From the NCBI GenBank assembly GCA_015065005.1, contig SVRE01000005.1, positions 899 through 64,898 of the forward strand: a stretch of DNA of 64,000 nucleotides. The letters are read 5' to 3'. Source of the stretch: Oscillospiraceae bacterium (GTDB taxonomy: Bacteria > Bacillota > Clostridia > Oscillospirales > CAG-272). Within the stretch, counting starts at the first letter, position 1, and the number at the start of each line of letters is the position of its first letter. Below the pieces are notes generated by a model. That model was not told where the DNA came from. It was given only the letters and a program-made list of their open reading frames with translations, and did no database searches. This document shows, piece by piece, positions 4,024 to 15,161 of the stretch. Both the position numbers and the translations under genes were made by a program.

Positions 4024-7000
4024 TTACTCTTGCAGTAAAAAATCATCCCAGTTTATGTCCACATTAATATTACCCATTAATGTTATAGTAATATCGCCCG
4101 CAAAATAATTTTTCATAGAATCTATGATGTCCATACAGCAATTTTCGTAGTATGCTTCAGCCATCTCAAAACTTTCGAAGAATATAACCTGTATAAAATC
4201 ACTGTTATTTTGCGCTATAAACATATCGGTGATTGCAACGGTAACGCCGAATTGCTCTTGTGCTACGCTCTCTTGATTGCGTAAATCGTCTTCAGTGGCA
4301 ATTGTTAAGGTGTACCCGTTATTTTCTAAATATTCAATCATTTTACCGTAATCGTGATAGCCCTGTGTGTAAGTAGCCTCAGTGTCGGATGGTACATTTC
4401 GTACATACTTGTATTGATAATCTACTTCCGTTAGGTTGAAAGCTGCTTCTTTAGGGTCGCTGACATCAACCTCCATAAAGCCCCCAACGATCCAATTGTC
4501 CGTCTTAGCAAAAGTTACACTTTCAAGGTAGATGCAATTGTAGAAGGCGTGTGAGCCGATTTCAATAATATTCTCAGGTATGTATATGGTTTTAATTACC
4601 ATGCAACTCTTAAAAGCATTTTTTCCTATTTTTGTAACAGGCAAACCACTGTGAGTGTTGGGTATAATAACATCACTATCTGTACAGTTACCAATACCAC
4701 TTACTGTATAGTGTGTAGAGTCTTCACTTAAAGTAAGCTCAAGTCCGTTTTCCGCAAAGTAAATATTGGTTTTCTTAAGTGCAAGCTTACAGTTGTAATT
4801 TTCGTTATCCAAGATAACAGGTTCATTGTTTAGCTCATATCCGCCGTTGCTTGCGAGTCCTGTGACCTTAACACTAATCTCATTTCCATTCAAAGCCACA
4901 TATGCACATGCTTTACCGTCATTGTCTGTAACGAGAGTGTTTTTAAATGCTTTCTCGCCTTGATAGAGTTGGACTGTTGCACCGGAAATTCCTTGTTCTT
5001 GATCATCAACTACGTTAACCGTAACTTTTTGTATGCAAATTGTTAGTGACTGTGAATCGGTATCAAAGTATACAAATTCGCTCGATTCATAGAAATCGCT
5101 CATACTATTGATAGAAACAACCCTTGCCATAAATTGTTTGTCATTAGGTATGCACTTTATTGAGCATGTACCGCTTTCGTCTGTCATAATTGTTGTACCG
5201 TAGCATAAATCACCTTGACAGATTTGAATATGTGCTCCACAAACTGCCTCGCCGCTTTGATTTAGTACGGTAACAGTAGCTTCTAAAGTTTCAGTTCCCC
5301 ACACGATTTCGCAATCATTCTTAGCCCAATTTTCACCCCAACCAACCGGTTGATAGCTTGCTTCACAGTATATGGTAGGGGTTATGGTAGAGTTGCTACC
5401 GAAAATATAAAATGCATCGTTGCCTATGTTTGTTACACTGTTAGGTATCACTACATTAGCGAGAATGCAACCTAAGAATGCTGTCTCGCCTATACTTATT
5501 ACACTATCGGGTATTGTTATGCTTGTAAGTCTGCAATAAGCGAAAGCACTTTTGTCTATGCTTGTTACGCTATTGGGTATTGTTACACTTGTTAGTCTGT
5601 AGCAATTAAAAAACAGCCTTTCGCTTATGCTTGTCACACTATCTGGTATTATTACGCTTGTTAGGTTTTGACAATATTCAAACGCACTGTTACCTATGCT
5701 TGTTACATTGTCAGGTATCGTTATGCTTGTTAAATTTGTGCAACTACGGAAAGCATCATCTCCTATCATTGTTATACTGTTCGGCATCGTTATACTTGTC
5801 AAGCTTATGCAACCAGCAAACGCAAAATCGTTTATGCTTGTACATGCGCTATTTTCTTCAAATACAACGCTAGTTAATTTTGGAAAACCAGCAAATAAAT
5901 GGCTTGGAATTTTAGTTACATTGCTTCCTATATGTACTGTTATTCCATTGCCGTTTTCGCCTGCATTGTCAAATACATAGTTATCTTCGCTTAAATCCAA
6001 CATTTCAGTTGCATTAAAGTTGATTTCGGTTAAGCTTATGCACTCATCAAACACACCGTTGCCCATGCTTTTTACACTATCGGGTATTGTTACGCTTGTC
6101 AAACTTGTGCAATAGTAGAATGCATCATCGCCTATGCTTATTACACTATTGGGTATTGTTATGCTTGTCAGGTTTTTGCAAAATTGGAATGCACAATCAC
6201 CTATGCTTGTTACACTATCGGGTATTGTTACGCTTGTCAAACTTGTGCAATAGTAGAATGCATCATCGCCTATGCTTGTACATGTGCTATTTTCTTCAAA
6301 TACTACACTTGTTAATTTTGATGCACCGGCAAACAAGCGGTTTGGAATTTTTGATACACTGATTCCTATATTTACCGTTATTCCATTACCATTTTCTCCT
6401 GTATTGTAAAATAAACAGTTATCTTCGCTTAAATCCATCATTTCAGTTGCGTTAAAGTTAATTTCAGTTAAGCTTTCGCAATTTCTGAATGCTTCATCGC
6501 CTATGCTTATTACACTATTGGGTATTGTTATGCTTGTCAGGTTTTTGCAAAATTGGAATGCAGAACAAATAATCTTTGTATTTTCATTTATTTTACAACT
6601 TGATATGGACAAATTCTTTGCTTCTATAAGAACTAAATACGGATTTTTTTCATTTCCCATATAATATCCGTTATCATATTCGTTATACTTTAGACTTGTG
6701 CAACCACGGAACGCAGAACCTCCTATACTTGTTACGCTATCGGGTATAGTTATGCTTGTAAGACTTGTGCAATAATAGAATGCGAGATCGCCTATGCTTG
6801 TACATACGCTATTTTCTTCAAATATAACACTCGTTAAATTTTCTTTTGATGAGGAATAACTAGGATAGAATAAATAGCTTGGTATTTTAGTTACATTGCT
6901 TCCTATATTTAATGTTATTCCATTGCCTTCTGCACCTGCGTTGTGAAACACATAGTTGTTATCATTTAAATCTGTCATTTCAGTCGCATTGAAATAAATT

Positions 7001-7821
7001 TGTGTTAAATTTGTGCAATTATGGAATGCATAAACGTCAATAACTGCTACGCTTTTCCCGATTGTTACGCTTGTAAGGCTAGTGCAACCTGAGAATGCAG
7101 AATAGTCTATGTTTGTGACACTGTCCGGTATTGTTACGCTTGTAAGGCTGTCATATTTTGCAAACGCATTATAGCCAATCCTTGTTACCGGCAAGCCTTC
7201 ATATGTGCTTGGTATATAGAGTTCTGTATCAGTACAGGTGCCCATGCCGGAAACAGTATAATATGTGCTGTCCTCACTTAAAGTATATTCAAGTTCTACA
7301 CTTATTTTTTCGCCACATCTATCACAACATCCATTCACATAGTTATGTCCTGTTGCTTTGATTTCTTCGGTTAATGTCTCACCGCATGAGCAGGTCTTTT
7401 CCTTTAAGCCGTTTTCTGTACAGGTGGGCTCTTTTGTTGCTGTCCATTCACTGTAAACGTGCTTATGCGGCACATCGGGGCTTGTATTATCGGTTTTACT
7501 TGAATCTGTTGTGTCGCCTGAACCATTCATATCGCCTGAATCGGTCGTATCACTTGAACCTGTATCGTTACTTGAATCGGTCGTACCACTTGAACCTGTA
7601 GCGTTACTTGAATCAGTTGTGCCACTTGAACCAGAGGTATTATTCGAATCAGTTGTACCGCTAAAATCTGTGATGTCGGAGCCTTCAACAGAAATGTCTG
7701 TGCTTGAATTTGTTGCTTTGCTTGAGGTTGAGCTGTTATCACCACCAAAGCACGAGGCGAGCAAGCAGCTTGCCAAAATGCAAATTAAGATAAGCGTTGA
7801 TAAAAATGTTAATTTTTTCAT
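4024..7821 (-). CDS. BspA-type leucine-rich-repeat surface lipoprotein (multi-domain)
   Basis: Lipobox LASC, S/T/D-rich linker, HxHxYSEW..PTC..G..CSCG module, many LTSVTIPDSVTSIGxxAFxxC repeats, two VxVxD/NQxGxxVxGAxVQ Ig-like units and a second LRR cap. RBS AGGAG at 7829-7833 supports a start at 7821. Confidence 0.9.
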   Translation of the reverse strand: MKKLTFLSTLILICILASCLLASCFGGDNSSTSSKATNSSTDISVEGSDITDFSGTTDSNNTSGSSGTTDSSNATGSSGTTDSSNDTGSSDTTDSGDMNGSGDTTDSSKTDNTSPDVPHKHVYSEWTATKEPTCTENGLKEKTCSCGETLTEEIKATGHNYVNGCCDRCGEKISVELEYTLSEDSTYYTVSGMGTCTDTELYIPSTYEGLPVTRIGYNAFAKYDSLTSVTIPDSVTNIDYSAFSGCTSLTSVTIGKSVAVIDVYAFHNCTNLTQIYFNATEMTDLNDNNYVFHNAGAEGNGITLNIGSNVTKIPSYLFYPSYSSSKENLTSVIFEENSVCTSIGDLAFYYCTSLTSITIPDSVTSIGGSAFRGCTSLKYNEYDNGYYMGNEKNPYLVLIEAKNLSISSCKINENTKIICSAFQFCKNLTSITIPNSVISIGDEAFRNCESLTEINFNATEMMDLSEDNCLFYNTGENGNGITVNIGISVSKIPNRLFAGASKLTSVVFEENSTCTSIGDDAFYYCTSLTSVTIPDSVTSIGDCAFQFCKNLTSITIPNSVISIGDDAFYYCTSLTSVTIPDSVKSMGNGVFDECISLTEINFNATEMLDLSEDNYVFDNAGENGNGITVHIGSNVTKIPSHLFAGFPKLTSVVFEENSACTSINDFAFAGCISLTSITMPNSITMIGDDAFRSCTNLTSITIPDNVTSIGNSAFEYCQNLTSVIIPDSVTSISERLFFNCYRLTSVTIPNSVTSIDKSAFAYCRLTSITIPDSVISIGETAFLGCILANVVIPNSVTNIGNDAFYIFGSNSTITPTIYCEASYQPVGWGENWAKNDCEIVWGTETLEATVTVLNQSGEAVCGAHIQICQGDLCYGTTIMTDESGTCSIKCIPNDKQFMARVVSINSMSDFYESSEFVYFDTDSQSLTICIQKVTVNVVDDQEQGISGATVQLYQGEKAFKNTLVTDNDGKACAYVALNGNEISVKVTGLASNGGYELNNEPVILDNENYNCKLALKKTNIYFAENGLELTLSEDSTHYTVSGIGNCTDSDVIIPNTHSGLPVTKIGKNAFKSCMVIKTIYIPENIIEIGSHAFYNCIYLESVTFAKTDNWIVGGFMEVDVSDPKEAAFNLTEVDYQYKYVRNVPSDTEATYTQGYHDYGKMIEYLENNGYTLTIATEDDLRNQESVAQEQFGVTVAITDMFIAQNNSDFIQVIFFESFEMAEAYYENCCMDIIDSMKNYFAGDITITLMGNINVDINWDDFLLQE
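6072..6562. repeat. Identical nucleotide duplications of LRR units
   Basis: 68-nt identity between 6072-6139 and 6210-6277; 69-nt identity between 6125-6193 and 6494-6562. Confidence 0.9.
7502..7662. repeat. 36-bp tandem repeat (about 4.5 units) encoding a GSSGTTDSSNxT linker
   Basis: GAATC recurs at 7502, 7538, 7574, 7610 and 7646. Confidence 0.85.
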
Positions 7822-7929
7822 ATTCATTCTCCTTTGTGTATAAATTCTTATCTTTAACACAATTATAACTTATAAATATTGTTAAAGTCAAGAAAATTCT
7901 CAACTTTAACACATTTAAAGAGGTTAATC

Positions 7930-8183
7930 ATGAAAATTTACGACTTTAACGACAAGAAGAATATTTGCGGAAAAAGGGTAAAAGAAGCAAGAAAAAATCT
8001 TAAACTTTCTCAAACTGATTTGGCAGCACGCTTGCAGGTGTGATAATAGAAAGGGATAGCTTAAGCCGTATTGAAATAGGAACAAGATTTGTGACGGATT
8101 ACGAGGTGGTTGCGCTTTCTAAATGCTTAGGAGTAAGCCCACTATGGCTACTTGGAATTGAGCAAAAAATCTCTTGGCATTGA
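7930..8183 (+). pseudogene. XRE-family HTH regulator, frameshifted
   Basis: MKIYDFNDKKNICGKRVKEARKNLKLSQTDLAARLQV ends at TGA 8041-8043. The -1 frame continues VIIERDSLSRIEIGTRFVTDYEVVALSKCLGVSPLWLLG to TGA 8183. RBS GAGGT upstream. Confidence 0.8.
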
Positions 8184-8198
8184 GCCAAGAGATTTTTT
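8164..8198. terminator. Bidirectional terminator
   Basis: AAAAAATCTCTTGGC...GCCAAGAGATTTTTT. Confidence 0.8.
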
Positions 8199-8241
8199 GT
8201 TATTTACCCACGCAAGAGGATTTATCTGCACGATAATCGCA

Positions 8242-9168
8242 CTATAGCTCCCAACTGCCGAGCCATTCCTCAAAGCCTGTATAAATATTGTTAAGCTCTG
8301 CCTTTAGCTCCTCGCCACCGTTAATGGTGTACTTGTAGTCCATACGGTCAAACTCCTCAATATAATGGAGCTCTCCCTTGTCGTACTCACCGTTATAGAG
8401 CTTGCTGTACGCCTTTTTGGCAAGCGTCTCGGCTTGCTTTATGTTTTCCACAAGCTGAGAAAAGGCTTCCTTATCTATTGCTTCAACCTTGGCTATAAGA
8501 CCGCTGAAATAATCGGGATCTGTGCCGTATTTTTTGCTTCCGCTTTCAAGATACATTTTTGTGTCCTCGGCATTGAGATAATAGCCCTTATGTGTGGGGG
8601 TTGTGTTTACATAGTATTCATTCCACTTGCACACAAAGTCAACATAGTCATACATCTTGTATATTTCATCAATAACACCGCTCTGGGCAAATTTCTCCCA
8701 AACCGCAAAGTCAGCGCCCATTTCCTCGCTTTTTAAGGTTTCATATTCTGCGTCAATTATCTTAAAATTAAATTGATAGCCGTACGGGTCGGTGAAAAAT
8801 TGGTCAACGCTTGGAGAGACCACAAGCTTACCGCTTACCTTAACAGCAGATGCGGTATAATCAAATTTTTGGTTTTTCTTTGGATAAACCTCAATTGTAT
8901 TTGAAAGCTCAGTGGTGTTGGGCACACAGAAAGGGCAGCTTTGATAAGGCATGTTCATAAGGAATATAAATGAACCGTCAACAGGTGAGGATGTGGCAAT
9001 ATAACCGTTGATGCTCACATTTTCACCGTCAAGAGTTTTTAAATAGTCATAGCTAAGGGTTGATTTGAAGCTTAGCCTTGTGTACTCACCGTTTCCGCAG
9101 GACAAGCAAAGCGGAGATATGATAAGTAAGCACATAAATAAGCTGATTATTTTTACAGATAATTTCAT
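8242..9168 (-). CDS. Lipoprotein with a DUF3299-like CPFC OB-fold domain and a C-terminal helical region
   Basis: Start MKLSVK after GGAGG; lipobox-like CLSC; LDGENVSINGYI..FLMNMPYQSCPFCVP..IEVYP..VKVSGKL pattern. Family recognised by eye. Confidence 0.65.
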   Translation of the reverse strand: MKLSVKIISLFMCLLIISPLCLSCGNGEYTRLSFKSTLSYDYLKTLDGENVSINGYIATSSPVDGSFIFLMNMPYQSCPFCVPNTTELSNTIEVYPKKNQKFDYTASAVKVSGKLVVSPSVDQFFTDPYGYQFNFKIIDAEYETLKSEEMGADFAVWEKFAQSGVIDEIYKMYDYVDFVCKWNEYYVNTTPTHKGYYLNAEDTKMYLESGSKKYGTDPDYFSGLIAKVEAIDKEAFSQLVENIKQAETLAKKAYSKLYNGEYDKGELHYIEEFDRMDYKYTINGGEELKAELNNIYTGFEEWLGSWEL

Positions 9169-9176
9169 TTTTCCTC

Positions 9177-10382
9177 CTATTCTGCCAAGCTGTCGCGCTT
9201 TGCCATAACGAAGGTGCATATAATTGTAGGTATAACACTGATTAGGAAAATACCCACAAGGATAATGATTTCAAGGGGATAAACCTTGTTAAGGTTAAGC
9301 ACAACACCCATGGTGGCAACATAGTCACCCATTAAAAGCAGGCAAAGTCTTGACACACCAAAGGCAATAACCGTGGAAATAGCACCGATAATACTGTTTT
9401 GTATAAGGTATAAAAGATTTATTTTCTTCATACTGATACCAATTAATCTCATCAAGGAAATTTCCTTTGCTGAGTGGTACATATTAAGAAGCGTGATAAT
9501 GGAAATTACAATTATGTTCATTATAAGAATAATAGCACAGAGAACAAATACAATGTATTTTGTGTCATCAGCATCACTCAGTACATCTCTGACAATCTGC
9601 ATAGGCTCAATTGCCTGCAAGGAATAGGTTTCGCCATCGTGGGTGATGGTCTTGTTTTCGTATTCATTTACAAGCTGCATAGCATATGTGGGATTTTTGG
9701 TGTTGACCAAAACAGCGCAAACTGTTCCGTGCATATGCTCGTGCTCCTCGTTCTTGCTTTCCTCGTGCTCATCACTCTCGTGGTCGTGCATTTCCCAAAG
9801 CGTATTAATTTGCGTAAACACAACTCTATCATAAACAGAGTATGTTTCGTCTAAAATACCAACAACTAAAATACCCTTTTCGTGCTTGCTGCTTTCGGCG
9901 GCTGAATGGCTTGTGTAAATGGTGTCTCCAACCTTAAGCCCGTTTTGCTTGGCAACCGTAGCACCAACCACAGCCTCAAGGGACCCTTCGTCTGTGAACA
10001 TTTCACCCGCTTTTAGCTCCTTGCCTGCTAAAAATTTGCTCTTAGTGCCCACAACGCTTGAGCCGTTGTAGTTGTCCGCCATAGCATAAGGAATGGCTGA
10101 TACAACATTGGGGTTTTGCTCTAATTCTGTAACCACAGAGTAAGGGATAGTGCCAAGTGGCTCCTCTGTAAAGTACATTGTATTCATAGCAAGCTGTGTC
10201 TTACTTCCGGAAGGACCGACAATCAAGGAATAATATCCTGCATTGCTTGTAATACCGTCACTTACCTGGCTTGAAACGTTAAAGGCAAGAACGCCAACGC
10301 TTGCCGAAATGATTATAGAAATAACAATGAGAATAACCTGAACCTTTTTTATTCCCATATTTTTAAGGGCAAATTTAAGCAT
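9177..10382 (-). CDS. ABC transporter permease, FtsX/MacB family, with a His/Glu-rich loop
   Basis: N-terminal TM, large extracytoplasmic domain with HDHESDEHEESKNEEHEHMH, C-terminal EISLMRLIG motif and three TMs. Confidence 0.85.
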   Translation of the reverse strand: MLKFALKNMGIKKVQVILIVISIIISASVGVLAFNVSSQVSDGITSNAGYYSLIVGPSGSKTQLAMNTMYFTEEPLGTIPYSVVTELEQNPNVVSAIPYAMADNYNGSSVVGTKSKFLAGKELKAGEMFTDEGSLEAVVGATVAKQNGLKVGDTIYTSHSAAESSKHEKGILVVGILDETYSVYDRVVFTQINTLWEMHDHESDEHEESKNEEHEHMHGTVCAVLVNTKNPTYAMQLVNEYENKTITHDGETYSLQAIEPMQIVRDVLSDADDTKYIVFVLCAIILIMNIIVISIITLLNMYHSAKEISLMRLIGISMKKINLLYLIQNSIIGAISTVIAFGVSRLCLLLMGDYVATMGVVLNLNKVYPLEIIILVGIFLISVIPTIICTFVMAKRDSLAE

Positions 10383-11016
10383 CGTATCTTCCTCCCGTCA
10401 TTTCGTTCATATCAATAACATAGTCAAAATACTTACACAAGCGGTCATCGTGCGCTACCGCAATCAAGGTTTTTCCCTTGGAAATTTCAGTCAACTCCTT
10501 GATTACAACCTCTCCAATCGCAAAATTAAGATTGCCCGTTGGCTCGTCAGCCAAAATAATCTCAGGAGACTTAACAATTGCTCTTGCAATAGCCACCCTT
10601 TGCTTTTGTCCACCGGACAAATGCTTGATTTTCTTGTTTTTTCTTTCAAGCATATCAAGGCTCTTTAATACCTCGTCTGCTTTGGATGTGTCGATACCCT
10701 CCAGCTTAAGGATGTTAATATTATCAATAACACTCATTTCAGTTATCAGCTTAAAGTCCTGAAATATATAGCCAATATTCTTAATTCGGAATAAATCCTT
10801 TTCCTTTTGGGAAAGCTTGGTCATATCAATGCCATCAATAGTAATTTCGCCCTTTTCTGGGGAGAGAATACCTGCAATCATATTAAGAAGTGTGGATTTT
10901 CCACAGCCGGAAGCGCCTAATAAAATGTAGGATTTTCCGCTTTCAAATACCATATCCTTGTAGTCAATTGCGGTTTCGTTTTTGAATTTCTTTGAAACAC
11001 CTGTTATGCTAATCAT
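10375..11016 (-). CDS. ABC transporter ATP-binding protein (LolD/MacB-like)
   Basis: Walker A GASGCGKS, IGYIFQDF, LSGGQKQRVAIARA and ILADEPTGNL. Confidence 0.95.
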   Translation of the reverse strand: MISITGVSKKFKNETAIDYKDMVFESGKSYILLGASGCGKSTLLNMIAGILSPEKGEITIDGIDMTKLSQKEKDLFRIKNIGYIFQDFKLITEMSVIDNINILKLEGIDTSKADEVLKSLDMLERKNKKIKHLSGGQKQRVAIARAIVKSPEIILADEPTGNLNFAIGEVVIKELTEISKGKTLIAVAHDDRLCKYFDYVIDMNEMTGGRYDA

Positions 11017-11025
11017 AAAAACCTC

Positions 11026-11910
11026 CTAATTAATTCCAAATAGCATTAAAGCAAAGCCGATCAAGGCAGAAACTAAATACATAGTAATAATAATGCGCAT
11101 GTTTTCCTTTTTTATCGGGTTAGCCTTAAGAAGCACTGCAATGCCAACCCCCGCGCCTGAGCAAAGTCCGGAAAGGGTCGCGCCAAAGGAAAGAGAGCCG
11201 TTAATATAAAGCTGTGTAATAGCAGAGGAAATTGCACAGTTTGGTATCAAGCCCAAAAGCGCTGTAATAAACGGCTGGGCATAATGTCCGCTCAGCAAAA
11301 TATCATTAAGTCTGCCCTCACCCAAGAAATATATAGCATAGCTAACTATAATATTAACAATAAAAATAAATAAAGTAGTCTTTAGAGTGTGAATAAGAGC
11401 AGGCTTTAAAATACCCTCCTCTTTCTCACAACCGCAGTCCTTGCACATATCAACAGCCGCTTTTTTGATTTTAAGCAGCTTTAAGGCAATGTCAACGCCA
11501 AATCCGACTACAATACCAATAATAATCTTGGCAAGGATAATTTTCCAAATAGAGCCGTGTGCCTCAGGAGTGGAAATAAGTATAGGAATCGCCTCGTCAC
11601 TTGTGGCTAAAAAAACCGCAATAAGTGTGCCCTCGGTAACTACACCTGCTGTATATAGGTTAGAGGCAGTTGCGGAAAAGCCGCACTGTGGAATACAGCC
11701 AAGCAAGGAGCCAAGCAAGGGTCCCCCACGTCCGATTTTAGATAAGGATTTTTCCATTTTATCAGACGCCTTATGCTCGATAAACTCCATTAAAAGATAG
11801 GCTAAAAATAAAAACAAAATAGCATTTAACGTGTCAATAGTACTGTGCCAAAGGGGATGCAAGAACTCTGGTAAAATATGATGCAAAAGCTCGTGTAAAA
11901 AGTTGAACAT
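11026..11910 (-). CDS. Putative heavy-metal (Mn/Zn/As) permease, ArsP_2/DUF2899-like
   Basis: Multi-TM protein with duplicated GCIPQCGFS / GLIPNCAISS motifs, TSDEAIP, His-rich N-terminus and a CKDCGC loop. Confidence 0.75.
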   Translation of the reverse strand: MFNFLHELLHHILPEFLHPLWHSTIDTLNAILFLFLAYLLMEFIEHKASDKMEKSLSKIGRGGPLLGSLLGCIPQCGFSATASNLYTAGVVTEGTLIAVFLATSDEAIPILISTPEAHGSIWKIILAKIIIGIVVGFGVDIALKLLKIKKAAVDMCKDCGCEKEEGILKPALIHTLKTTLFIFIVNIIVSYAIYFLGEGRLNDILLSGHYAQPFITALLGLIPNCAISSAITQLYINGSLSFGATLSGLCSGAGVGIAVLLKANPIKKENMRIIITMYLVSALIGFALMLFGIN

Positions 11911-11920
11911 TAAGGCTCCT

Positions 11921-11960
11921 TTTCAAATTCATTCTCAAATTTGAGAAGTGTTCTCAAATT
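11921..11960. promoter_or_regulatory. Fur-family-like operator (overlapping palindromes)
   Basis: AATTTGAGAA-gtg-TTCTCAAATT (11938-11960) overlaps the perfect palindrome TTCTCAAATTTGAGAA (11932-11947). It lies between the promoter and RBS of the metal operon. Confidence 0.6.
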
Positions 11961-11968
11961 ACGAATTC

Positions 11969-11997
11969 ATTATAATACCAAAAGAGTAAAATGTCAA
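11969..11997 (-). promoter_or_regulatory. SigmaA promoter of the metal-transport operon
   Basis: TTGACA-17 bp-TATAAT on the minus strand. Confidence 0.85.
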
Positions 11998-12118
11998 CAC
12001 CCAAAATGAAAACAAAAAATTAAATTTTGTAAATTAATGTAATGTTTGGTAAAAATACTAACAAAAAGGTATTGAAAAAAACGAATCATTGTGGTATTAT
12101 CTTAACAGATAGATTTTA

Positions 12119-12217
12119 CAGAGTAAACATATGTGCGTTAAGTGTTTAGAGGACGGGGAGTTGCCTCTTTAACGAAAACCATTGGCGGTTGCGGTACATA
12201 TGTTGCATCCCGCTGGA
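12119..12217 (+). ncRNA. THF riboswitch
   Basis: CAGAGTA...GCGTTAAGTG...GGGAGTTG...AACGAA...GCGGT...GCATCCCGCTG matches the THF aptamer architecture; upstream of folT-folC. Confidence 0.9.
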
Positions 12218-12271
12218 CTCATCTCCACAAACGGTGCAAAATCTGTATTTCGTTTAGGGAGGTGTTTTTTT

Positions 12272-12802
12272 ATGCGAAAAAATGAAAAAATAAGAAAAAT
12301 AACTACAACAGCAATGATGATAGCCTTAAGTGTTATTATCGGTATGTTCTGCAAAACCTTTTTGAATTTCGGTGCAGGGCTCTTTAGGGTAACCTTTGAA
12401 AACATTCCTATTATTATGTCGGGCATAATTATGGGGCCGTTTGTAGGCGGAGCGGTTGGCTTAGCCTCCGACCTTCTCAGCTATTTTTTGTCTCCGCAGG
12501 CATACCCGCCGAATTTGATAGTAACCTTAGGTGCTACAATGGTTGGTGTTATGTCAGGCTTAGGGTCAAGGCTGATAGTAAGGAAAAAGGGAAGAGCGCA
12601 AATAATAGTTTCTGGCGCTCTTGCACATTTGGTAGGCTCTATGATAATAAAGCCAATCGGTCTTTATCAGTACTATCAAGCTATGACGTTTTTGCGCATA
12701 CCCTTTTATTTGGTAATTGCTCCTATTGAAATTGCTCTTATTTGTATGCTATTAAGCAGGCGTGGCTTTGCAAGGGTGGTCGGATATTGTGACACACAGT
12801 AA
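12272..12802 (+). CDS. folT: Folate ECF transporter S component
   Basis: AMMIALSVII, RVTFENIPI..GIIMGP..GG.VG..SDLLS pattern; THF riboswitch upstream; ATG after GGAGGTG. Confidence 0.85.
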   Translation: MRKNEKIRKITTTAMMIALSVIIGMFCKTFLNFGAGLFRVTFENIPIIMSGIIMGPFVGGAVGLASDLLSYFLSPQAYPPNLIVTLGATMVGVMSGLGSRLIVRKKGRAQIIVSGALAHLVGSMIIKPIGLYQYYQAMTFLRIPFYLVIAPIEIALICMLLSRRGFARVVGYCDTQ

Positions 12803-12816
12803 ACGGAGGATATATA

Positions 12817-14094
12817 ATGAATAAGGAAGAAGCACTTGAATATATACATTCAATAAATTGGACCTTTTGCAAGCCGGGGCTTGAAAGGATAAGAGAGCTT
12901 TGTGAAAAGCTTGGAAATCCGCAAAACAGCTTGAAATTCATCCACGTGGCGGGGACAAACGGCAAGGGCTCCCTTTGCTCAATGCTCTCAAGCGTGTTGA
13001 AGGAGCAGGGTTATACAGTTGGCTTATATACATCTCCTTACATCAAATGCTTTAATGAAAGGATGCAGATTAACGGGGAGATGATAAGTGATTCCGAGCT
13101 TGCGGAAATTACTGAAAAAATCAAGCCTATAGCGGACAGTCTGGAGGATAAGCCAACGGAATTCGAGCTTGTAACCGCTATCGCATTTGAGTATTTTAAA
13201 AAGCATAGATGTGATTATGTTGTTCTTGAATGTGGCTTGGGCGGCAGGCTTGATTCCACCAATATAATTGAAAATTCGGTTTTATCTGTAATTACGGGAA
13301 TTGCCCTTGACCATACATCAATTTTAGGTGACACGGTCGAAAAAATCGCCTATGAAAAGGCGGGCATAATAAAAGAGGGTGTACCGTGCCTTTGGTGCGG
13401 TGATAATGCTGAGGCTTACGGTGTAATAAGTAATGTAGCTAAAGAAAAAAACGCACCCTTATTCAAGACAGAAAAAAGTGGGGTAAACATTAAAAATGCG
13501 ACACTGGATGGCACTTTTTTTGATTTTGATGACTATAATAATGTAAAAATCAATCTTCTTGGCACCTATCAGGTCAGCAACGCAATAAACGTCTTGTATG
13601 CAGTCAAGCTTTTACAGAAAAGCGGTGTGAAAATTAACAAGGAAAGTGTATATAAGGGGCTTGAGAAGGCTCGCTGGCAGGCTCGATTTGAAAAAATCTC
13701 AGACACTCCCCTCGCTATTTTTGACGGAGGTCACAATCCGCAGGGGGTTGACTCCTGTGTTGAAAGCATAAAATCATATTTTGGTAACGAAAGGGTGTAT
13801 GTCTTAACAGGAGTTATGGCTGATAAGGATTATACTTATATTTCAAATAAAATCGGTGAAATTGCTGCTTGTGTTTTTTGCATAACTCCCAATAACCCAC
13901 GTGCCTTGGATGCAAGGGAGTATAAAAAAGAGTTTTTAAGACAAAATATAACAGCAGAAAGTTATCAAAGCATTGATGAGGCTGTTTGTGCTGCATTGGA
14001 AATGGCAAAAAGAATGAACAAATCCCTTGTCTGTCTTGGCTCGCTTTATATGTATTCGCAGGTTGTGGACAGCGTGAAAAAACACAGCAAATAA
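12817..14094 (+). CDS. folC: Folylpolyglutamate/dihydrofolate synthase
   Basis: IHVAGTNGKGS, GLYTSP, ECGLGGRLDSTN, EKAGIIK, DGGHNP and GSLY. Confidence 0.95.
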   Translation: MNKEEALEYIHSINWTFCKPGLERIRELCEKLGNPQNSLKFIHVAGTNGKGSLCSMLSSVLKEQGYTVGLYTSPYIKCFNERMQINGEMISDSELAEITEKIKPIADSLEDKPTEFELVTAIAFEYFKKHRCDYVVLECGLGGRLDSTNIIENSVLSVITGIALDHTSILGDTVEKIAYEKAGIIKEGVPCLWCGDNAEAYGVISNVAKEKNAPLFKTEKSGVNIKNATLDGTFFDFDDYNNVKINLLGTYQVSNAINVLYAVKLLQKSGVKINKESVYKGLEKARWQARFEKISDTPLAIFDGGHNPQGVDSCVESIKSYFGNERVYVLTGVMADKDYTYISNKIGEIAACVFCITPNNPRALDAREYKKEFLRQNITAESYQSIDEAVCAALEMAKRMNKSLVCLGSLYMYSQVVDSVKKHSK

Positions 14095-14122
14095 GCCTTA
14101 ATTCCTCAAAATTCGCTATGAC

Positions 14123-14151
14123 TTGACAAAGAATATAATATATGTTATAAT
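14123..14151 (+). promoter_or_regulatory. SigmaA promoter of the polysaccharide cluster
   Basis: TTGACA-17 bp-TATAAT with extended TG. Confidence 0.8.
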
Positions 14152-14198
14152 AAAGCATCCACATAGTGATTTTCGTTCTTGAAGAATAGGAAGATTTT

Positions 14199-15161
14199 AT
14201 GAATAAAAATATTGATAAGTCTGACATCAAGGCTCAGGAAAAATCTGAGTTTAAGGAATGGTTTGACTTTACAAAAAAAGAATTCGTTAAAAATATAAAT
14301 ATTGTTAAGCAGCTTGTTTTAAGGAGCATTAAGGTTCAGTACAGGAACTCTGTTATCGGTGTTTTCTGGACAATTCTTAATCCTCTTTTGAATATGCTTG
14401 TTATGTATCTTGTGTTTAGCAGCATGTTCAGCAGGGGTGGTACTACAACGGAGGTTGATAAGGCAACGTATGCTCTTTACCTTCTTTGCGGTAATATTGT
14501 TTTCGGTATGATGAGGACGGCAACATTTCAATCCCTTCCATCTATCGTACAGAATCGCGGCTTGCTTACGAAAAACAAAATGTCATACAATGTTTTTCCC
14601 TTGTCTCACAATTTAAGTGCGGTTGTTAATTTCGGATTTTCATTTGTCGCACTTTTGGGCGTTATGCTTGTTGTCTGGATACAGGGTCAGGCGGTGTTTA
14701 GCGTGAATATTTTCAGGGTGTTTATTGTTCTTCCTGCGCTGTTCTTATTCAGCTACGGTCTTTCCTTGGTGCTTTCGGCAATGTACACCTTCTTCAGAGA
14801 CATTATGCATTTTTACAATGTGTTCTTGACACTATGGATGTATCTTACACCGATTTTCTATAATCTCAGCATGTTCGGCAAGGATTTTTCTGGCAAGTTT
14901 ATGGAAACGGTTATCAAGCTTAATCCAATGTACTATTACGTTGAATATTTTAGGGATGTTGTGTACAGATGCTCGGCGCATCAGGCGGTAGTGGATAAAA
15001 TGCAGGCAGCAGGCGAAACGGTGTCTCAGGTTATGTCTCAGGCGGCATTGCTTCCGGGTGCTTGGGAAACTGCAATACTGTACATTATCGGTATAGCGAC
15101 AACACTCATTGGTGCTATTGTATTTATGGCAACAAAGCGTAGATTTATTTACAATATTTAA
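14199..15161 (+). CDS. ABC-2 polysaccharide/teichoic acid export permease (Wzm/TagG-like)
   Basis: KVQYRNSVIGVFWTILNPLL, FFRDI, WMYLTPIFY and LNPMYYYVEYFRD. Confidence 0.9.
   Translation: MNKNIDKSDIKAQEKSEFKEWFDFTKKEFVKNINIVKQLVLRSIKVQYRNSVIGVFWTILNPLLNMLVMYLVFSSMFSRGGTTTEVDKATYALYLLCGNIVFGMMRTATFQSLPSIVQNRGLLTKNKMSYNVFPLSHNLSAVVNFGFSFVALLGVMLVVWIQGQAVFSVNIFRVFIVLPALFLFSYGLSLVLSAMYTFFRDIMHFYNVFLTLWMYLTPIFYNLSMFGKDFSGKFMETVIKLNPMYYYVEYFRDVVYRCSAHQAVVDKMQAAGETVSQVMSQAALLPGAWETAILYIIGIATTLIGAIVFMATKRRFIYNI

Follow-up and report, generated by a model that had tools for sequence, protein, structure and literature searches.

Which protein takes up zinc in gut bacteria that are without ZnuA, the binding protein of the textbook importer ZnuABC? 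The question is raised by a four-gene operon in a 64,000-nt stretch of an Oscillospiraceae genome (contig SVRE01000005.1; hereafter the window). Coordinates are positions within the window unless another locus is named, and the operon lies on its minus strand. The genes encode a 294-aa permease of the ArsP_2 family (11026-11910), a 213-aa ATP-binding cassette (ABC) ATPase of the FtsE/LolD/MacB clade (10375-11016), a 401-aa MacB-type permease (9177-10382) and a predicted lipoprotein of 308 aa (8242-9168). We found that the ArsP_2 gene is preceded by a conserved operator of the Fur-family type and that its family is distributed in a manner complementary to ZnuA. The best explanation of these genomic patterns is that ArsP_2 would stand in for ZnuABC, which the genus is without. 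If the permease does import zinc, thousands of annotations as "arsenic efflux protein" are wrong, and the zinc economy of a major bacterial group in gut and rumen depends on an unstudied transporter.

The family assignment of the permease is clear: it matched PF11449 with 70.1 bits (cut-off 32.5) and the NCBIfam model NF037962, "arsenic efflux protein", with 251.1 bits (cut-off 100) over model positions 1-287. The motifs PQCGFS, TSDE and PNC were kept in all of 28 homologues from the class, at 34-49% identity, and the Cys/His cluster of the central loop was kept in most of them. A crude hydropathy scan gave seven segments above threshold; about ten transmembrane (TM) segments are expected for the family. 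A preliminary description of this DNA, made from the sequence alone, had listed a set of His- and Cys-rich motifs in the operon. All of these were found in the translations: five His within residues 1-22 of the permease, GCIPQCGFS, GLIPNCAIS and CKDCGC, and in addition HDHESDEHEESKNEEHEHMH and SCPFC.

We compared the occurrence of ArsP_2 with that of ZnuA (PF01297). ZnuA was found in none of 50 genomes of the genus, including none of 23 genomes of high quality, and the control search was positive in 11 of 14 reference genomes. The absence of a classical solute-binding protein, which the preliminary description had noted for the operon, hence extends to ZnuA throughout the genus. ArsP_2 was present in 46 of the 50 genomes, including all 23 of high quality. 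Among 300 sampled genomes of the class, 55 had ArsP_2 and 208 had ZnuA; according to a table compiled by hand, ZnuA occurred in 9 of the 55 ArsP_2-positive genomes as compared with 199 of the 245 ArsP_2-negative ones. About one-fifth of the sampled Clostridia genomes thus carry the permease, mostly without ZnuA, and a whole genus is without the textbook importer. Within one genus of the class (g31), six genomes had ArsP_2 only and four had ZnuA only. In two families (f31 and f44), each genome had at least one of the two.

The operator block of the operon (11916-11962, minus strand) is built around the palindrome AATTTGAGAA-cac-TTCTCAAATT at 11960-11938, whose arms are 100% complementary. The palindrome can be written as 7-1-7 or as 10-3-10. 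It begins 8 nt past the -10 hexamer, and two more copies of the half-site then extend to the Shine-Dalgarno sequence. Fur-family operators have this layout: an AT-rich inverted repeat of the 7-1-7 type, overlapping the promoter or the transcription start. At up to three mismatches the palindrome is unique in the 2.06-Mb assembly, and a weight matrix gave it a score of 32.5, as compared with 15.3 for the next best genomic site. In an alignment of 26 related promoters, the entire stretch from the -10 element to the ribosome-binding site was conserved. The operator has two acceptable half-sites, GAGAAT and GATAAT.

The 23-nt pattern (at most three mismatches) was found in 41 of the 50 genus genomes, mostly once, and the reversed control pattern in 5. 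An ArsP_2 gene lay directly downstream in 25 of the 29 box loci that were fetched; the remaining four were weaker matches with no ArsP_2 gene. Manual cross-matching of box and ArsP_2 coordinates placed the box within ~ 150 nt of 38 of the 47 ArsP_2 genes of the genus, and two more genes with a higher-mismatch box raise this number to 40. The box belongs to the permease gene alone and not to the ABC genes; 12 of the 25 loci with box and ArsP_2 run on into an ATPase gene and 13 have the permease gene by itself. Judged by layout and conservation, the palindrome is very probably the operator of a Fur-family protein. The preliminary description had spoken of a Fur-family-like box, which our results support and narrow: the box can be sharpened to a putative Zur-like one, heading a single-target regulon with the permease as its target. 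Box and permease would then form a clean one-target regulon for the study of Zur specificity. Three Bacillus subtilis Fur-family consensus boxes had no perfect match in the genome and were not used further. Five ArsP_2 genes in five genomes of one genus subclade share another promoter without the operator block (L194, L196, L197, L198 and L200), which suggests constitutive expression or changed regulation in that subclade.

Which regulator could act on this box? ArsP_2 loci of the class that belong to other families (n = 28) included five in which a Fur-family gene follows immediately on the same strand and one in which such a gene lies upstream; the identity of these genes was confirmed by Pfam FUR. 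In four genomes the ArsP_2-Fur operon is preceded by TGCRAAT-N-ATTYGCA, placed just after the -10 element. DNA affinity purification sequencing (DAP-seq) has mapped the same motif as the site of Fur_1691 of Clostridium thermocellum, a Zur protein (site TGCAAATcATTTGCA), upstream of a zinc ABC operon (PMC8457756). The boxes in front of the ArsP_2-Fur operons elsewhere in Clostridia correspond to that site with 0-1 mismatch. The window operator shares the 7-1-7 layout with the Fur_1691 site, whereas its half-site is TGAGAAT and its regulator gene is unlinked. This half-site is one base from the 7-1-7 repeat reported for Zur of Streptomyces coelicolor, TGAAAATGATTTTCA (PMC2823685). For the 15-mer clostridial box, a tolerance of two mismatches was too loose (40-106 forward-strand matches per genome versus 9-31 for the reversed control), and only sites with 0-1 mismatch were interpreted.

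Two Fur-family genes are present in the genome of the window: a PerR-like one next to a rubrerythrin gene, and one on contig C68 whose product has a Cys/His-rich tail. Metal typing of the C68 protein failed, as its PDB relatives, among them PerR, Fur, Zur and Nur, scored alike. No iron-uptake gene carries the box in this genome. An apparent cobW match there proved to be FtsY, and no COG0523 gene was found. In one genome of the class (G159), a clostridial box without mismatch also precedes a gene fusion of cobW (COG0523-type) and DUF1980_C, followed by a gene with NifX-like and FKBP domains (L093 1534-2469 and L190 162-2124). This pair looks like unusual metallochaperones in the same regulon as ArsP_2. 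Titles and abstract openings gave no link of DUF1980, DUF318, TIGR03943, YcgQ or PF03773 to zinc.

The operator is placed for repression, relatives of the permease gene are co-transcribed with Fur genes and preceded by a box that DAP-seq assigned to a zinc regulator, and the family replaces ZnuA; therefore, zinc import is the best reading of the permease, and its label as an arsenic-efflux protein is disfavored by the regulation and by the ZnuA replacement. Going by these comparisons, zinc is the likely metal, and we consider it fairly probable that the permease acts as a Zur-repressed importer. ArsP_2 would thus occupy the regulon position of ZnuABC or AdcABC, preceded by a Zur-type box and, in some genomes, adjacent to a zur gene. 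In contrast to these importers, it belongs to an unrelated, secondary-carrier-like family without a cluster A-I binding protein, and its distribution is complementary to theirs. With much the same reserve, we incline to the view that the ArsP_2 family comprises unrecognized Zur-controlled zinc importers that replace ZnuABC in much of the gut and rumen Clostridia.

The three genes behind the permease tell a different story. The lipoprotein has 1441 homologues in the protein database and 212 matches among representatives at 50% identity; the matches listed for it and for the small partner protein described below carry no functional name, and those listed for the lipoprotein no Pfam domain. Scanning species genomes with a 12-row lipoprotein alignment gave 299 loci in metagenome-assembled genomes labeled Clostridia, Eubacteriales, Oscillospiraceae, Acutalibacteraceae or Faecousia, which come from animal and human guts. 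We kept 80 of these loci, 68 of them with enough upstream sequence. The genes for ATPase, FtsX protein and lipoprotein were adjacent in the 80 loci wherever the contig allows. Upstream of them, ArsP_2 was found in 6 of the 68 loci, all with the box; a gene for a protein of ~ 95 aa was found in 59, and neither in 3. The loci of the genus itself (n = 17) comprised 6 linked to ArsP_2 and 11 linked to the small protein. The ABC module (ATPase, FtsX protein and lipoprotein) is a separate conserved unit that is widespread in gut Clostridia.

The small protein has two hydrophobic segments, an H-x-C...C-x-x-C motif after the first in 58 of 59 cases, and a conserved C-terminus of the KLKVKLSD type. Its gene lies 40-180 nt upstream of the ATPase gene (L118 2682-2969, L122 2761-3087, L149 2664-2954 and 56 further loci), and the promoters of this form of the module are without the box. 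Three of the small proteins were scanned against Pfam, and nothing was above cut-off. In a tree of the three concatenated module proteins from 18 genus loci, ArsP_2-linked and small-protein-linked modules were split by a single branch (SH-aLRT, an approximate likelihood-ratio test, 94), and one genome (G017) holds both kinds. Because of the split and of this genome, the modules look like two paralogous lineages, one of which would have stayed with the permease. Within the ArsP_2-linked lineage, identity to the lipoprotein of the window falls to 40-45% (L029-L032).

The preliminary description had taken the four genes as one metal-handling system. This part of it fails, because the operon joins two units, an arrangement kept in a single lineage: an ArsP-like gene joins the ABC module in only 6 of the 68 wider loci and 12 of the 25 box-bearing loci of the genus. 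The ArsP-like gene is, for the most part, not conserved with the module, an outcome that the description had itself named as telling against it.

Genes for DUF134 proteins, which have a helix-turn-helix (HTH) resembling sigma-70 region 4, directly flank the small-protein form in 10 of the 80 loci (for example L141 2435-2773, L161 1167-1952 and L187 2302-2697; also L134, L175 and L178). The four upstream DUF134 genes that were read (L141, L161, L169 and L187) encode Cys/His-rich tails, and that of L161 is fused to a NifX-like domain. The DUF134 proteins could be regulators of the small-protein form.

The proteins of the module were analyzed one by one. The ATPase matched PF00005 and remained below every NCBIfam cut-off; its best matches there were models for bacteriocin export, FtsE, DarD and LolD. 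The earlier "LolD-type" label therefore holds at the level of the FtsE/LolD/MacB clade but not for LolD itself. The gene adjoins the FtsX gene across related loci and overlaps it by 8 nt in the window. The FtsX protein has MacB_PCD (PF12704) at residues 17-202 and FtsX (PF02687) at residues 280-395, which confirms by hidden Markov model (HMM) the family proposed for it, as PF11449 did for ArsP_2. Its hydropathy (TM1, a long loop and C-terminal TM segments) agrees with the topology of MacB and other type VII ABC proteins, in which the first two of four TM helices are separated by a large extracytoplasmic domain. The ATPase is encoded separately and not fused to the permease as in MacB itself. 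A His/Glu-rich extracytoplasmic loop follows a conserved LW-x-x-H in all 18 FtsX proteins of the genus, with variable length.

The lipoprotein start was set at the ATG of MKLSVK, in agreement with an identical 308-aa database protein (P0001). It has an N-terminal hydrophobic segment (residues 8-26), and 45 of 54 homologues have a Cys aligned with that of ...LSC-GNG, the putative lipobox cysteine; the residue at position -3 is atypical for a lipobox. The CPFC pair was present in 18 of 18 genus proteins (once as CPYC) and in 40 of 54 diverse homologues, so that the His/Cys motifs first noted in the window are conserved beyond it. A count of 77 of 80 in the wider loci is biased, because the search pattern contained the Cys motif, and was not used as evidence. 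The protein matched nothing in Pfam (even at E <= 10) or NCBIfam. An AlphaFold2 model based on 54 homologues had a mean predicted local distance difference test (pLDDT) score of 91.4 and consists of an oligonucleotide/oligosaccharide-binding (OB) fold at residues 28-150, to which the CPFC pair belongs, and a C-terminal helical domain. Upon structural re-alignment, 4hsp (PA4066, a DUF3299 protein of Pseudomonas aeruginosa) ranked first, with Z 10.1 and a root-mean-square deviation of 2.7 over 108 residues. Foldseek itself ranked 4hsp 22nd, and a profile of the 54 homologues against PDB sequences did not retrieve it. PF11736 (DUF3299) had zero matches across the whole genome of the window. For the DUF3299 relationship proposed in the preliminary description there is thus a match by fold, with PA4066 as the top structural match, and none by HMM, Pfam, the whole-genome search or the PDB profile. 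We regard it as a structural likeness in the model, made more plausible by gene context; membership of the family is not established.

We also predicted the complex of the FtsX protein with the mature lipoprotein. The score was 0.48, with 0.00 for the best control; separate runs agreed in at least 36% of contacts, and partner pLDDT was at least 76. Of 157 solved complexes, 116 reached the mark applied, as did 2 of 215 mismatched pairs; passing scores of 0.60 or less comprise only 18 of the 157 solved complexes together with both passing mismatches. The prediction thus gives weak support for a contact between the two proteins.

The module recalls two systems of Gram-negative bacteria. The zrgABCDE operon of Vibrio and PA4063-PA4066 of Pseudomonas are described as Zur-induced and as encoding a separate ATPase, an FtsX-type permease, a DUF3299 protein and the His-rich ZrgA/PA4063 (PMC9817125, PMC11481552). 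In the zrg operon the DUF3299 gene is zrgE, and a small DUF2607 protein is also reported for Vibrio (PMC9817125). How these systems work is a matter of dispute. The authors of the Pseudomonas work argue that a MacB-type machine exports a pyochelin-cobalt complex, and in their study the loss of PA4065 led to intracellular accumulation of pyochelin and cobalt (PMC11481552). The window module shares with these systems an FtsX/MacB-type permease, a separate ATPase gene (as in PA4064/PA4065; PMC11481552) and an adjoining gene for an extracytoplasmic OB-fold protein, as well as the absence of a classical binding protein. In one of the two module forms it also shares control by a Fur-family, putatively Zur-type, box. 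The small membrane protein of the commoner form recalls ZrgD by operon position only.

The differences are equally clear. The OB-fold protein is a lipoprotein here because the host is Gram-positive, and it has an added 160-residue helical domain and a CPFC pair and matches neither the DUF3299 nor the ZrgA HMM. The His-rich segment lies on the loop of the permease instead of in a ZrgA protein; PF10986 (ZrgA) had no match at E <= 1 in the genome of the window, which is 83% complete, or among the four operon proteins. The partners are Cys-rich membrane proteins, one of them the ArsP_2 permease; no such permease is among the zrg and PA4063-PA4066 genes named in the parts of those papers cited here (PMC9817125, PMC11481552). 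With MacB, LolCDE and FtsEX the module shares the MacB_PCD and FtsX domains, a large outer domain and an ATPase of the same clade; it differs from them in having a metal-type loop and a lipoprotein partner and no MacA/TolC-type partner. The likeness to zrg that had been suggested earlier is therefore borne out by the split MacB-type ABC; for the lipoprotein it is confined to the fold (4hsp, Z 10.1) and does not extend to the DUF3299 HMM. The module looks like a Gram-positive counterpart of ZrgBCE/PA4064-66. It offers a simpler setting, without outer membrane or periplasm, for the question of function and direction in MacB-type systems of the Zrg/PA4063-66 kind.

Taken together, we lean slightly towards reading the operon as a zinc-starvation operon in which the permease imports zinc and the ABC module loads its partner. 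When zinc is plentiful, a Zur-type Fur-family repressor would bind the double operator between the -10 element and the ribosome-binding site and block transcription; the candidate is the C68 protein, the one of the two paralogues that is not PerR-like. Under zinc scarcity, all four genes would be transcribed as one unit. The ArsP_2 permease would then import zinc through a translocation site formed from its two proline-x-cysteine motifs and TSDE. Driven by ATP, the ABC module would act mechanically on the outer side of the membrane; it would capture zinc there and deliver it to a cysteine-rich partner in the membrane, namely the ArsP_2 permease here and the 95-aa Cys/His membrane protein in most relatives. 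The assistance of the permease by the module is a doubtful element in this scheme, which we put forward tentatively. Combining both ideas, that ArsP_2 is a family of zinc importers and that a MacB-type ABC serves as an ATP-driven extracytoplasmic zinc loader of a cysteine-lined conduit, seems unlikely to us. Such a loader would amount to ABC-assisted metal import without a binding protein and without transport through the ABC.

A number of observations weigh against the zinc-starvation reading. The Fisher test applied to the ZnuA/ArsP_2 table gives a value that overstates the case, because the compared genomes share kinship. Nine ArsP_2-positive genomes also have ZnuA; six of these carry long ArsP_2 forms of 415-440 aa, which, unlike the 280-300-aa forms, may be a different subfamily. 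ArsP_2 is not the sole possible zinc route, because the genome of the window has a ZIP-family (ZupT-like) gene as well. That gene (L107 1480-2247, contig C7) overlaps the end of an sfsA-like gene, is without a Fur-type box, and may be a constitutive low-affinity route for zinc. No regulator gene adjoins the operon, and 22 of the 28 class ArsP_2 loci are without an adjacent Fur gene. The C68 paralogue has only 26-35% identity to the Fur proteins linked to ArsP_2, and 31% to the PerR-like paralogue of the same genome. The genus half-site TGAGAAT differs from that of the clostridial Zur box, TGCAAAT, and 7 of the 47 ArsP_2 genes of the genus, among them the five with the alternative promoter noted above, have no box or a decayed one. 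The second box-fronted operon of G159, with its NifX-like and FKBP domains, fits nickel or cobalt as well as zinc. As to the module, 59 of 68 ABC-lipoprotein modules are linked to neither ArsP_2 nor box. The next structure after 4hsp, an unrelated OB fold, had Z 9.5, and OB folds of replication protein A and tRNA synthetases were less than one Z unit below 4hsp; the DUF3299 and ZrgA HMMs found nothing. Finally, the experiments on the Pseudomonas relative suggest export of pyochelin-cobalt and not import of zinc (PMC11481552).

The last of these points bears on the most serious alternative, in which the regulation is the same and the ABC module exports a metallophore, a competing metal or a mis-metallated species instead of feeding the permease. 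The two would be co-expressed only as both serve the response to zinc starvation. MacB-type ABCs are known as exporters or mechanotransducers, and the loss of PA4065 had the effect described above (PMC11481552); moreover, the module occurs without ArsP_2 in 59 of 68 loci and ArsP_2 occurs alone in 13 of the 25 genus box loci. However, the loci examined showed no genes for metallophore synthesis, and the module always keeps its extracytoplasmic His loop and Cys-pair lipoprotein. A Cys-rich membrane protein is the partner in both arrangements, and the ArsP_2-linked modules of the 18 genus loci lie on one side of a branch, with lipoprotein identities to that of the window as low as 40-45% (L029-L032). 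We give the export of such a species a minor share of the likelihood.

In a further alternative, the Fur-family protein at the operator senses nickel, cobalt, iron or manganese, and the permease imports that metal. The 7-1-7 plan is common to Fur-family boxes for different metals, the genus half-site equals no described box exactly, and the Cys/His sites would suit nickel and cobalt equally well. In addition, the cobW-type and FKBP/NifX-like chaperone domains of the regulon partner in G159 also serve nickel and cobalt. Zinc is nevertheless favored by DAP-seq, which mapped the related box upstream of a zinc ABC operon, by the phyletic complementarity, which is with ZnuA, and by the finding of mostly one box site per genome and of no box-bearing iron-uptake gene in the genome of the window. 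Import of another metal is in our view quite unlikely.

It is very unlikely that the module is unrelated to metals, being, for example, an exporter of peptides or envelope components that lies behind the permease by chance. The top NCBIfam model of the ATPase, a bacteriocin-export family below its cut-off, would fit such a role, as would the fact that the module elsewhere has its own promoters without the box. On the other hand, all 18 FtsX proteins have the His/Glu loop, and the lipoproteins conserve their Cys pair. The partners of the module are always Cys/His-rich, DUF134 genes with Cys/His tails adjoin it in 10 of 80 loci, and the ArsP_2-linked modules are on one side of a single branch of the tree.

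Could the permease be an arsenical or heavy-metal efflux pump, with the palindrome as a site of metal-induced derepression? ArsP of Campylobacter is an organoarsenical exporter. The permease keeps the cysteine motifs of the ArsP_2 family, NF037962 is named "arsenic efflux protein", Pfam describes PF11449 as "putative 10TM heavy-metal exporter", and relatives are labeled alike in public records. This label disagrees with the regulation and phyletic pattern described above, which suggest zinc uptake. Among the open reading frames (ORFs) at 6000-14500, covering the operon and its flanks, there were no ars genes and no ArsR gene. Uptake genes have the layout seen here, a Fur-type operator that overlaps the transcription start; homologues of the permease gene are co-transcribed with Fur-family genes, and the family is complementary to ZnuA. 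Our literature search gave no tested function tied to PF11449, DUF2899 or ArsP_2, and the terms "arsenic efflux protein" or "10TM heavy-metal exporter" together with Zur gave no link to zinc. An efflux pump is highly improbable.

Least probable of all is an RNA hairpin in the 5' leader, acting by attenuation or by masking of the ribosome-binding site. The leader can be folded, and the Shine-Dalgarno region might pair with the downstream copies of the half-site, but folding is weak, at -9.9 kcal/mol (z -1.86, equalled by 8 of 200 shuffles), and no covariation of the arms was seen in 26 sequences. The one variable arm position was a GC pair in 18 sequences, a GU pair in 1 and unpaired in 7. The covariation score of the arms was 0.036, as compared with a mean of 0.049 for shuffled alignments, and 434 of 500 shuffles reached the same score. 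Because the arm variation is non-compensatory, the palindrome is better read as a protein operator than as an RNA structure.

The remaining elements of the operon agree with the preliminary description, which had one consensus promoter, a palindrome, four tightly packed genes and a terminator; all are present on the minus strand. The promoter (11969-11997, minus strand) is of the sigma-70 type, with TTGACA at 11997-11992, a 17-nt spacer and TATAAT at 11974-11969. It was the sole 12/12 consensus match among 26 promoter-like sites in 7800-12400, a region whose shuffled versions averaged 13.0 sites, and the -10 hexamer was kept in the 26 aligned related promoters. A hairpin at 8163-8198 (16 bp followed by a U-tract; -27.2 kcal/mol, z -6.85; none of 200 shuffles folded equally well) forms an intrinsic terminator that works in both directions. 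A simple consensus scan missed this hairpin, and folding against shuffles revealed it. The terminator is common to the operon and to the remnant of a convergent XRE-type HTH gene (7930-8190, plus strand). A 37-aa N-terminal ORF of this gene is closed by three stop codons and the remainder of the protein continues in another frame to the shared terminator, so that we are dealing with a pseudogene that has undergone a frameshift or else with an error of assembly.

Divergent from the operon lies a tetrahydrofolate (THF) riboswitch (84.7 bits; 12117-12217, plus strand), which precedes a gene for a folate-family energy-coupling factor (ECF) S-component (12182-12802). It was the only Rfam family found in 7800-12400, with no RNA family in the leader of the operon. 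A folylpolyglutamate synthase-like gene (12817-14094) follows the S-component gene, and the same riboswitch flank was seen beside ArsP_2 genes in other genomes of the genus. On the other side, directly beyond the terminator region, is the gene for a predicted surface protein of 1278 aa (4024-7860, minus strand) with seven BspA-type leucine-rich repeat regions and a Ser/Thr/Asp-rich linker.

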